Notes: generated by a model not told the origin, from the letters alone. A stretch of 63,257 nucleotides of DNA, filler included, from Kipferlia bialata (GCA_003568945.1; 4 parts of 4 records of this genome joined end to end with filler, not necessarily neighbours in it), one strand, 5' to 3'. Counted from the first letter of the whole stretch, positions 47,598 to 51,051 are shown. A program made the numbers and translations.

Positions 47598-48343
47598 GGC
47601 CAAGTACATCATGCAGACCAATGCCACCCTGCTGCACCGGGTGCCTACTGAGTACCTGCTGAGGCTGGAGTGCATCCTGGTCAGTGTCGACGGCAGGCCC
47701 GAGACCACCAATGCATACAGAGGTACCCTATCCATGCACGGATCTGTCGGATGTATCTGGGTCGGATACGATATTGTCTATATCCACATGTTGGCAGTCT
47801 CTCCTGTGACCAGAGAGGGGATGTATTGGCACTCTTTTTACCCATGTGTTTGTGTACAGATCTGTCCGGTGTATATCCACTCTCCACTTCTATACTTCTG
47901 TGTCTCTCTTGGCCATCCATGACCACCCGTTTCATGGGCTACCGGTGTCTTGCCCTCAGAGTACTGTCCCATTATATCATATAGTATATATCATATAGTA
48001 TATAGTAGGCACAGTGCACACACGCTTGCTGATGTGTCTGTATATCCTGTGACCATCTCCCACAGTGCATTGATGTATCCAATCCACCTCTCCCCCTGAC
48101 CCCCAGGCGACAAGGTGTTTGACAGGATCCAGCAGAACGTGACCGATGCCATTGAGAGAGGGTACAGCAGGAGCATAGTGGCACGGTACGGGGTATATGT
48201 ATTCATTAAAATACATATATGGTGAATAGTATGTACTGATACTTGTGTTTGTGATTGAGAGTAGCATAGTGGCACGGTACGGTGTATTGTGTCACATCTA
48301 TATATATATATATATATATCCCTGTGGCCTGTCCCTCTCCCTC

Positions 48344-48381
<38 letters not shown>

Positions 48382-51051
48382 CTGTCTGACTGTGCAGCAT
48401 GACGTGCTCCCTGTCCACTGACATCTATGAGGAGGTCTCATACCTGCTGGACTCAGACAGGTATGTGTATGTGTGTGTATATGTATATATATATGGATGG
48501 TAGAATGAAGGTAGTGATATATAATGGGTGGGGAGGGGTTACATGTGTGTGTGTCTGTATATCTATGCATGTACCTGTGCCTCCATGCCCCTCTCCTGTA
48601 TCTATATCTATATCCTGTATCTATATCTATATCCTGTATCTATATCTANNNTGTATCTATATCTATATCCTGTATCTATATCTATATCCTGTATCTATAT
48701 CTATATATATCTATATGTATATCTATGTATCCCTGACCCAGGTGTCCCATTCCCTTTGACCACGTGTACTGGCAGCTGGACGTGGAGTTCGATGCCCCCA
48801 TGAACAACAGGCACGCATGGACAACATATATATATGTGTGTGTGTGTGTGTGTAAGTGTGTGTGTGTGTCGATACCCCCATGAACAACAGGCATGATACT
48901 GATACTGATGCTGATACTCCCATGAACAACATGCACGCATGCTCCACGTATATGTATTCATGTACATATATGGATGGGCCATAAGCCAGTTTTCTTGTAC
49001 TGTCGTAAAGTACATGTTTGTGAACCTAATTTCCAGGTGGGAAGACTTCCCCGGGTGGGTGAGGGACACATACGTGCCAGGCCTAGGTGGGTATCAGTAT
49101 CAGTATCACCTACTATCAACTACTATCAACTACTATCAACTACTGATACTGATACTGATACTGATACTGACACATACGTGCCAGGCCTAGGTGGGTACTG
49201 TGTGTATGGGCATGTATTCATGGCGTATACGCATGCATGTCAGTATGATCATTTAGTTACATGCATATATTCCCATACTCATGTATATCGTCGTGTATAG
49301 ATATGTGTATTGAGTGCTATGAAATATCTGTCCGCTGACTACTTCGAGTAGATGCTATTAGTCCCATATGTACCTATTGTATAGAGTGGTGGTCTATACC
49401 ATCAGCATCCCATCTGCCTCTGCCTCTGCCTCTGTCTGTGTCTGTGTGTGTGTGTGTGTGTGTACATGCATGTGTCTCACTGTCAGAGCGTCTGCACAGG
49501 GACTGGATGGCCCAGATGAGGAAGACCGGCAAGGTGGGGTATGGGATGCAATGGGGGTCTGTGTGCGCAGTTCATATTGCCAAGTGATCTATACACACCC
49601 TATCTATACACACCCTCACCCAGGTTGGAGGCATTGTACCCTTCACATCCACCACAGAGACCCTTCTGTTCTCCCCCGACAAGCCATGTGGCCTCAGATG
49701 CAGCGCAGGTATGCATAGTGTATATAGGTATGCATAGTGTATATAGGTATGCATAGTATAGATATAGATATAGATATAGATATAGATATAGATAGATATG
49801 GATGCAGACAGACGTATAGCAATGTGTCAGTCCTCCATGTGTGTCTGCCCTCCCATCCCATCCCATCCTATTGCATTGTGTACCCCCCCCCCCTGTCTAA
49901 TGAGCCCAGGCCAGGAGGCCCTGTCCATCACCACAGATGGCAGGGTGCTGGCATGCCCCATCGCATCCCCCGACAACTGGAACAACATCGGCACCATCCT
50001 CTGCCCCAAGGCACAGGTGGGGGCATGGCGTATAGTGGATACTATACAGTAGATATATATATATATATATATATATATAGTGTATAGTGTACAAGTGGCT
50101 ATGGTGTGGTGTGATCACATGCCGGGGTCATGTATGTATGTGTGATATGGTGCCCAGACCCTCTGTCTCACCCAGGCCGCCCAGGAGGCTGAGCTTCTGG
50201 CCAAGAACCCTGACGCACTGAAGGTATGCATGCTCTGCAGTGTGTGTGTATGTGTGTCTGTATATAACTATGTGTATATATCAGCGTATATATAACTATG
50301 TATATATGACTGTGTGTATATAACTATGTATATATATCTGTGTGTATATGCACTCAAGGTGTGCACACTCATTGCTATGTGTGGATTTACTAACTTATGA
50401 GTGATAGCAGTGTGAGTAAATACCCCTTAACCTAGGATATGTGTATTAATGTGTTCATGTCTTCCCAACCCCAGGCCAACCACCCCGAGCCATTGGCCGA
50501 GGGCCAGGAGGAGAAGGCTCCCACATACCACTCCTGCGTCAACAAGGTAGTGCATGGATGTAGATGCGTATCATATCAGTATCATGTACCCTGTATCCCC
50601 TATCTGTACCCCCTCTGAGCGTTTCTCTTCAATGCATACCCCCACCCCCAGGCCAACCTCACCAACCCCTGTCCCGACTGTGACATTGTGGGCATGTGTG
50701 GGGGCAGGTGCCTCTACGCCAACCTCACCCAGTGGTGCGTCATCCCTATCCCCTCCCTCTCTCCTCCCTCTCCCTCTCCCTCTCCCTCTCTCATGGCAGG
50801 TGGGGTCCCGAGGGCTTCGACCATGTGTGTGACACGGTGCGTGCCCTGGTCCGGCTGGTCAAGTCCAGCGACAAGGAGATCCAGGAGCTGATAGAGGTGG
50901 GTGCATGCATACACATACATGTACTATTCATATATATATATATATATATATATTAGTATACACCCTCTGTGCTGATGCCTAGGCTGGCAAGGTGGACCCA
51001 GAGGAGTTCCGGTACCCAGCCAAGCAGTACTCCCTGGAGATCATCCCATAG
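47598..51051 (+). CDS. Radical SAM enzyme with C-terminal SPASM domain (resembles the archaeal AF0577-type family); N-terminal CxxxCxxC lost at contig linker; about 13 exons
   Basis: IMQTNATLL, ILVSVDG.PETTNAYRG..VF, IVARMT, HVYWQLD. SPASM: RCSAGQEALSITTDGRVLACP ... CPDCDIVGMCGGRCLYAN...HVC. Ends YSLEIIP*. Confidence 0.85.

Follow-up and report, generated by a model that had tools for sequence, protein, structure and literature searches.

A spliced radical SAM/SPASM gene of Kipferlia bialata in family TIGR04084, a candidate oxygen-independent deoxyhypusine hydroxylase

The window analysed in this study is a whole stretch of 63,257 nt from Kipferlia bialata (GCA_003568945.1), and gene positions are counted from its first letter. 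At 47598..51051 on the + strand, the window carries a spliced gene for a radical SAM protein with a SPASM domain, which by sequence is a new, already deposited member of TIGR04084 (rSAM_AF0577), a known family without assigned function. Phyletic correlation leads us to propose, at a little below even confidence, that the gene belongs to a candidate family of O2-independent deoxyhypusine hydroxylases, acting on eIF5A in place of DOHH. More tentatively still, TIGR04084 as a whole may be the enzyme still missing for the second step of hypusine synthesis in archaea: a radical SAM hydroxylase working without O2, widespread among Asgard archaea, that anaerobic protists of three eukaryotic supergroups would have retained and aerobes exchanged for DOHH, with a betaproteobacterial sister family acting as an O2-independent putrescine 2-hydroxylase.

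Phyletic evidence for a possible role in hypusine synthesis

A search at E 1e-10 found 287 relatives of the Kipferlia protein, 120 of which were listed. The eukaryote-named proteins among these 120 came from Giardia (2), Ergobibamus, Carpediemonas, Entamoeba marina, Blastocystis and Trichomonas vaginalis; the remainder were from archaea, unnamed records and one Leptospiraceae metagenome-assembled genome (MAG). Every eukaryote-named row besides the query was from an anaerobe (8/8), the family occurs in at least seven anaerobic protist genera (with two members in T. vaginalis), and no human-named relative was present among the matches listed. The sharing of the family by archaea and anaerobic eukaryotes, and its absence from aerobic eukaryotes among the matches, suggests that it stands in, without O2, for an oxygenase.

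DOHH is an O2-dependent di-iron enzyme (PMC9117371, PMC8153317). Archaea have no DOHH, yet PMC5178350, quoting Bartig 1990, lists S. acidocaldarius, P. occultum, T. tenax and A. ambivalens as species with reported hypusine, with little or none in halobacteria, methanogens, thermococcales and thermoplasmales. In vitro, the S. solfataricus DHS yields only deoxyhypusine, which led the authors to postulate a second enzyme (PMC6105217). The distribution of TIGR04084 follows this pattern. Sulfolobus acidocaldarius carries the family, proteins named for A. ambivalens and T. tenax belong to it, and Pyrodictium is represented by proteins named for P. delaneyi and P. abyssi, the hypusine-reported species being P. 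occultum. On the deoxyhypusine side, H. volcanii, M. jannaschii and M. acetivorans stayed under the cut-off. Amongst Thermoplasmatota, the order without the family (0/78 genomes) is presumed to be Thermoplasmatales from six thermopsin genes in its centre genome. Scored in this way, 4/4 hypusine archaea have the family, vs 0/4 with deoxyhypusine only (Fisher p 0.029, uncorrected for kinship and hence overstated, because the archaeal contrast follows kinship).

The protists present the same gap. Hypusination in T. vaginalis was ascribed to a bifunctional DHS, an activity questioned in the title of a 2024 paper that appears in the reference list of PMC12868627, and PMC7909649 describes E. histolytica as being without DOHH. 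The range of TIGR04084 includes the DOHH-less Trichomonas and Entamoeba, the Entamoeba member found being that of Entamoeba marina.

The range of the family is all-or-none by clade (21/23 genomes in one order of Thermoplasmatota vs 0/78 in the other), copy number is nearly always one per carrier genome, and the gene has no conserved neighbours. Single copy, orphan status and an all-or-none range are together as expected of a housekeeping modifier. The closest solved folds belong to enzymes with peptide or protein substrates, which also counts in favour of the hypusine reading, and 60/60 carriers tested have aIF5A.

In the mechanism that we envisage, the radical SAM cluster would cleave S-adenosylmethionine (SAM), and the resulting 5'-deoxyadenosyl radical would take a hydrogen from the protein-bound substrate, the aminobutyl arm on the eIF5A lysine, to form a radical at C2 of the deoxyhypusine arm. 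Two auxiliary clusters with only seven cysteines between them would have one free iron site, as in CteB, and the auxiliary cluster with this site could carry out a one-electron oxidation of the radical. The hydroxyl oxygen would come from water, either as hydroxide bound to that iron or through the opening of an aziridinium ion. The terminal E-x-x-P motif, invariant in the family, and residues W99, W119 and Y124 (numbered as in the Kipferlia product) would hold the substrate amines; DOHH also uses glutamates to bind the side chain (PMC9117371). The proposed reaction, hydroxylation at C2 of deoxyhypusine in eIF5A, would be that of DOHH (yeast Lia1). However, DOHH is a HEAT-repeat di-iron monooxygenase (His-Glu sites) that uses O2, whereas TIGR04084 has an unrelated fold, a partial TIM barrel with SPASM, and would use SAM, Fe-S clusters and water.

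Several observations weigh against this proposal. The chemistry has only partial precedent by analogy: anSME, the anaerobic sulfatase-maturating enzyme, uses water as the oxygen source in oxidising a C-H adjacent to sulfur, BchE inserts water-derived oxygen, and hydroxylation at a carbon beta to an amine is not known for any radical SAM enzyme. aIF5A lay within 5-6 kb in 0/140 family loci and within 10 kb of the family gene in 1/60 genomes, and 138/201 genomes of the class holding Sulfolobus are without the family. A Leptospiraceae-labelled protein adjoins the Fornicata clade, yet bacteria have no eIF5A. The CxxxCxxC motif of the Kipferlia protein was not seen in the window or in the last 30 nt of the upstream part of contig X2 (described below). 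The archaeal contrast is largely one split, between crenarchaea and euryarchaea, and the idea was framed after the control genomes had been seen, with only the Acidianus, Thermoproteus, Pyrodictium and Thermoplasmatales checks standing as predictions. The 31 aIF5A partners in a published S. solfataricus pull-down (PMC6105217) include no radical SAM protein; a transient, air-sensitive enzyme could escape such an experiment. Finally, hypusine traces are reported in groups without the family (PMC5178350), and full hypusination of Entamoeba eIF5A is not known (PMC7909649). Our searches of the non-subscription literature found no link of TIGR04084 to hypusine; for work since 2019 they gave just two papers on yeast iron.

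Archaeal deoxyhypusine hydroxylation without DOHH has been a gap since the 1990 hypusine report, strict anaerobes included, and Trichomonas and Entamoeba share it. If the hypusine reading is true, TIGR04084 would catalyse a new radical SAM reaction, one translation-factor modification would have separate anaerobic and aerobic solutions, and the finding would bear on the Asgard inheritance of the first eukaryotes. It would also point to an enzyme that Giardia, Trichomonas and Entamoeba possess and for which the matches listed include no human-named relative. If the reading is wrong, the family stays an uncharacterised housekeeping enzyme common to archaea and anaerobic protists.

The betaproteobacterial sister family

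A sister family scores 130-152 bits on TIGR04084 (three members scored), under the cut-off of 225. Its named members are only Betaproteobacteria (Gallionellales, Hydrogenophilales and others) and one 'Pseudomonadota' record, and no match was found on plasmids. The metagenome loci are:

L306-L324, e.g. L319:5832-6947 and L306:7902-9074, strand not stated: sister-family genes

The sister family is a stand-alone gene that keeps the same cysteines and the terminal E-x-x-P (as E-[IV]-[MI]-P), and it has lost W99, W119 and Y124, which are invariant in TIGR04084 proper. Betaproteobacteria are reported to make 2-hydroxyputrescine (PMC10385936), the C2-hydroxylated unit of which is the same as in hypusine, and the sister family is a candidate O2-independent putrescine 2-hydroxylase. 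This parallel also speaks for the hypusine reading of TIGR04084.

Family membership and predicted fold

The spliced Kipferlia product (P0001), though partial, scores 252.8 bits on the hidden Markov model (HMM) of TIGR04084, over the curated whole-protein cut-off of 225 bits. An earlier, sequence-only reading of the window had assigned the gene to this family and proposed an HMM search as a check, which bore it out. All the motifs are present in the product: QTNATLL, VSVDG, ARMT, HVYWQLD (HxxWQLD in the earlier reading), CSAG, DGRVLACP, CxxCx5CGGRC, C286 and the terminal EIIP. The SPASM cysteine set, C-x17-C ... CxxC-x5-C-x3-C ... C, is complete, as had been claimed, and consists of C170, C188, C255, C258, C264, C268 and C286. 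In the family alignment the SPASM cysteines (the last kept in 91% of relatives), R68, W99-Q100, W119 and Y124 are invariant, and the terminal E-x-x-P is found in 107/107 aligned proteins; P0001 retains every family-invariant residue within its span.

The Kipferlia gene differs from the rest of the family in having at least 12 introns and a 36-residue insertion absent from 106 relatives. The spacer between the second SPASM cysteine and CxxC is 66 residues in Kipferlia, vs 26-36 (median 30) in 106/106 relatives, and the insertion takes in all of exon 9 with portions of exons 8 and 10. It had been described as a low-complexity insertion of about 35 residues; the length holds, but the complexity is only mildly low (3.4 bits vs a median of 3.9). 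The insertion is the least confident part of the structural model (predicted local distance difference test (pLDDT) score of ~61 at residues 221-240), predicted as a helix and a flexible loop.

MOCS1, viperin and TYW1, raised as alternatives by the sequence-only reading, were not the best matches and are absent from the six NCBIfam matches of P0001. A Pfam scan of the partial protein gave no match, a PDB sequence search gave chance armadillo-repeat matches only, and the ESM Atlas gave clusters with automatic names only. NCBIfam (June 2026) still assigns no function to TIGR04084; a literature search on 'TIGR04084' returned no paper, and on AF0577/chuR only unrelated accession numbers among the matches listed.

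Some variation was seen within the family. The members from A. ambivalens and P. delaneyi (P0330, P0269; L164-L185) have only nine cysteines, that of A. ambivalens with an aspartate at the position of the last SPASM cysteine, and in a single case (P0139, 692 aa) the family member is fused behind an APH-type phosphotransferase domain.

The Kipferlia model is a partial TIM barrel with a SPASM domain, and the fold of an archaeal family member was predicted with a pLDDT of 95. Against solved structures, the archaeal model gave Z scores of 29.3 for CteB (5WGG), 27.9 for anSME (4K36-4K39) and 25.6 for ChlB. Viperin and MoaA share the radical SAM core but rank well below the SPASM enzymes (Z ~16). 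The CteB and anSME alignments had a root-mean-square deviation of 3.2-3.3 over 319-336 residues at 17-22% identity, and the best Foldseek match was anSME (TM 0.64-0.71). In common with these two enzymes, the archaeal member has the radical SAM/SPASM fold; unlike them, TIGR04084 has an extra C-terminal helix and the invariant terminal E-x-x-P, falls far under their HMM cut-offs and has neither a sulfatase partner nor a recurring precursor gene among ORFs of at least 50-60 aa. The model's tail, up to ~residue 350, overlaps in the structural alignments with the C-terminal region of viperin and BtrN, which suggests that the E-x-x-P may sit over the active site.

Distribution and origin of the family

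Amongst Thermoproteota, 112/251 genomes had the family over the cut-off. By class, the counts were 49/74 in the class of genome G001, 63/201 in the class holding Sulfolobus (that of G214) and 18/121 in the class of G004. The family was also present in 39/201 Thermoplasmatota genomes and 65/121 Asgard genomes. In a set of 14 control genomes, four of them archaeal, the family was found only in the aerobe S. acidocaldarius; H. volcanii, M. jannaschii and M. acetivorans were not over the cut-off. The sequence-only reading had presented the gene as that of an enzyme of an anaerobic protist, and it is indeed a Kipferlia host gene, but the family is neither peculiar to Kipferlia nor confined to anaerobes.

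A tree of 70 rows, hand-chosen from 143 (LG+G4, quick search), placed Kipferlia within a Fornicata clade (Shimodaira–Hasegawa-like approximate likelihood ratio test (SH-aLRT) 98) and joined Entamoeba, Blastocystis and Trichomonas in a second clade (SH-aLRT 97). The data would allow a single old eukaryotic origin, whether through inheritance from archaea or through one transfer and later passage between protists, because holding both protist clades together (with unnamed members and the Leptospiraceae-labelled row) was not rejected (26 log units better, approximately unbiased test p 0.757); the constrained group was defined after the tree had been inspected, and the result does not demonstrate a clade.

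Three proteins (P0013, P0005 and P0010) form a tight clade adjoining Fornicata, and one of them, on a 52 kb contig, is labelled as a Leptospiraceae MAG. This protein may be from a misbinned eukaryote or a real bacterial case; a scan for a Leptospiraceae-like clade found no close locus, with a best match of 48% over a fragment. The Caldisericaceae match is probably misbinned: just 1/93 genomes of the phylum has it, the contig is 1.7 kb long, and the genome lacks both aIF5A and DHS. Viral contigs and phages yielded only distant radical SAM proteins (20-40% identity, mostly partial length).

The Giardia gene 16519 is presumably the one annotated as AstB/chuR-related. In Spironucleus, a 'radical SAM superfamily protein' with Giardia counterpart 16519 is included in a table of Fe-S proteins, with an expression change of 2.3, in a study of oxygen stress (PMC6397501).

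Gene neighbourhoods and alternative functions

We examined 140 family loci, 80 from one locus set and 60 from the 112 Thermoproteota positives, calling open reading frames (ORFs) of at least 50-60 aa. The only neighbours to recur across distant lineages belonged to large superfamilies (ABC ATPases, for example), and a Pfam scan of 69 neighbour proteins gave a mixed set. The substrate gene that the sequence-only reading had proposed to look for in prokaryotic neighbourhoods was therefore not there as a conserved partner among the called ORFs. Its description of the enzyme as of 'peptide-maturase type' is apt for the SPASM fold, but describes the fold only. The neighbourhood pattern is the one expected of an enzyme that works alone on a housekeeping substrate, and does not resemble a peptide or sulfatase cluster. 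The TIGR04084 enzyme would probably modify a protein.

The best-surviving alternative to hypusine, which we regard as unlikely though worth serious consideration, is that the enzyme modifies another conserved housekeeping protein of archaeal/eukaryotic type, perhaps a different translation factor or a protein of the ribosome, through oxidation or the formation of a thioether cross-link. The orphan, single-copy pattern fits this equally well, as do the CteB-like fold and the seven-cysteine SPASM set; the next-best HMMs for a full-length relative were PapB and QhpD. Some neighbours are also translation genes, seen with no background comparison: an operon that we take to be S13-S4-S11-rpoD lies ahead of the family gene in DHVE2/Aciduliprofundum loci, and eS26, an aminoacyl-tRNA synthetase and Sm were seen elsewhere. 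However, these neighbours vary by lineage, and no other modification with such a range and a missing enzyme was found in a literature search covering hypusine, sulfatase and the family name only. In the DHVE2/Aciduliprofundum loci (L001-L010), an rpoD-like gene was near the family gene in 7/10.

A substrate other than protein appears improbable: in this reading the enzyme would do the work of an oxidase without O2, on a free polyamine or some other small molecule, or on RNA, for instance at a tRNA base. A gene that we take to be tRNA-thiolase-like was near 5/140 loci, the betaproteobacterial sister family has no eIF5A as a target, and a radical SAM enzyme is reported to replace an oxidase in tRNA modification under anaerobiosis (PMC13228596). 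Against this, the nearest folds act on peptides, and the invariance of W99, W119 and Y124 in TIGR04084, with their loss in the sister family, fits an added larger substrate.

Neither peptide nor sulfatase maturation is likely, given that the gene has no conserved neighbour and that only 11/68 carriers have a sulfatase (PF00884), and we give each of the two very little credence. An anSME function would accord with the Giardia and Trichomonas annotation 'AstB/chuR-related', with other database names and with the top Foldseek match. However, P0001 scored 26.5 bits on TIGR03942 (anaerobic sulfatase maturase), against a cut-off of 349.45, a search with TIGR03942 at E 1e-20 did not match the full-length close relative P0013, and sulfatases are present in 2/3 archaeal controls that lack the family. 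The SPASM fold is likewise common in maturases of dedicated ribosomal peptides (RiPPs), yet P0001 scored <30 bits on the RiPP maturase models. No adjacent precursor peptide gene recurred among the called ORFs (>=50-60 aa), a limit that a very short precursor could slip under, and there is no room for an N-terminal precursor-recognition domain in full-length relatives, where CxxxCxxC starts at ~residue 11, i.e. ~10 residues from the N-terminus.

Gene structure in the window

Splicing of 13 exons on the + strand gave a single open frame of 330 aa and a stop, whilst the two other phases contained 10 and 11 stops. The radical SAM and SPASM gene spread over about 13 exons, as outlined by the sequence-only reading, is thus confirmed. 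The spliced product is identical to the NCBI hypothetical protein 'KIPB_003496, partial [Kipferlia bialata]'. The features are:

47430..47529, no strand: assembly gap (N runs); missing 5' exon(s), ~70 aa with CxxxCxxC and GGEP, in or beyond the gap
47598..47722, +: exon 1, aa 1-41; QTNATLL and VSVDG, radical SAM core; TIGR04084 positions 71-110
48107..48185, +: exon 2, aa 42-68; final residues are the invariant AR; joined to exon 1 in the X2 contig
48398..48460, +: exon 3, aa 69-89; spliced frame
48742..48810, +: exon 4, aa 90-112; HVYWQLD; GC donor
49037..49086, +: exon 5, aa 113-128; invariant W119 and Y124
49487..49533, +: exon 6, aa 129-144; spliced frame
49624..49708, +: exon 7, aa 145-172; C170, the first SPASM cysteine
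49910..50016, +: exon 8, aa 173-208; DGRVLACP, C188; insertion begins at the exon end
50176..50223, +: exon 9, aa 209-224; entirely inside the Kipferlia-specific insertion; GC content at third codon positions (GC3) 0.75
50475..50546, +: exon 10, aa 225-248; insertion ends, then sequence alignable with relatives; GC3 0.88
50652..50734, +: exon 11, aa 249-276; CxxCx5CGGRC (C255, C258, C264, C268)
50800..50896, +: exon 12, aa 277-308; C286
50983..51051, +: exon 13, aa 309-330 and stop; terminal E-x-x-P, invariant

Of the 12 introns, 11 are GT-AG and one is GC-AG. The GC3 of the exons is 0.61-0.94, and the GC content of the introns is 0.33-0.63.

The contig carrying the gene begins at 47530, right after the N gap, and measures 15,728 nt, the length of the P0001 record as well. 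The CxxxCxxC triad and GGEP are not in the window, where tblastn for the N-terminus found no match, and none of four candidates checked was an N-terminal Kipferlia fragment; the triad and the GGE motif are present in the Giardia and Carpediemonas orthologues. A contig from run X2, which we guess to be RNA, contains exon 1 exactly, followed by the first bases of exon 2, with intron 1 absent. Upstream of exon 1 it has 221 nt unlike the window sequence. The last 30 of these nt read in frame as CMSVMDHFGD and resemble the Giardia segment before the same strand. The ~73 codons in the 221 nt equal the need of the missing N-terminus, the triad itself not being among the 30 nt read. The word share of X2 (0.23) compares with 0.233 for the gene model with exons 9-10 and 0.209 without them, a difference too small to decide between the two.

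The gene is real, spliced and host-encoded. That it is truncated, dead or a contaminant has next to no probability: the catalytic triad is not in the window, but the canonical introns, the open frame, the spliced contig with its upstream sequence and the placement inside the Fornicata clade all argue against it, in accord with the earlier judgement that the gene is not contamination.

Neighbouring genes

A separate spliced gene at 46723-47348 (+) encodes a hydrophobic, membrane-like segment and enters a poly-C tract and the N gap; a Pfam scan of two of its exons gave no match. Unless the scaffold was joined wrongly, the gap must contain both the 3' end of this upstream gene and the beginning of the radical SAM gene. 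Downstream, the neighbouring gene at 51550-52960 (+) has a Ribosomal_L1 domain. The X2 contig (3,087 nt) is much longer than the radical SAM frame, and may extend into the Ribosomal_L1 gene.

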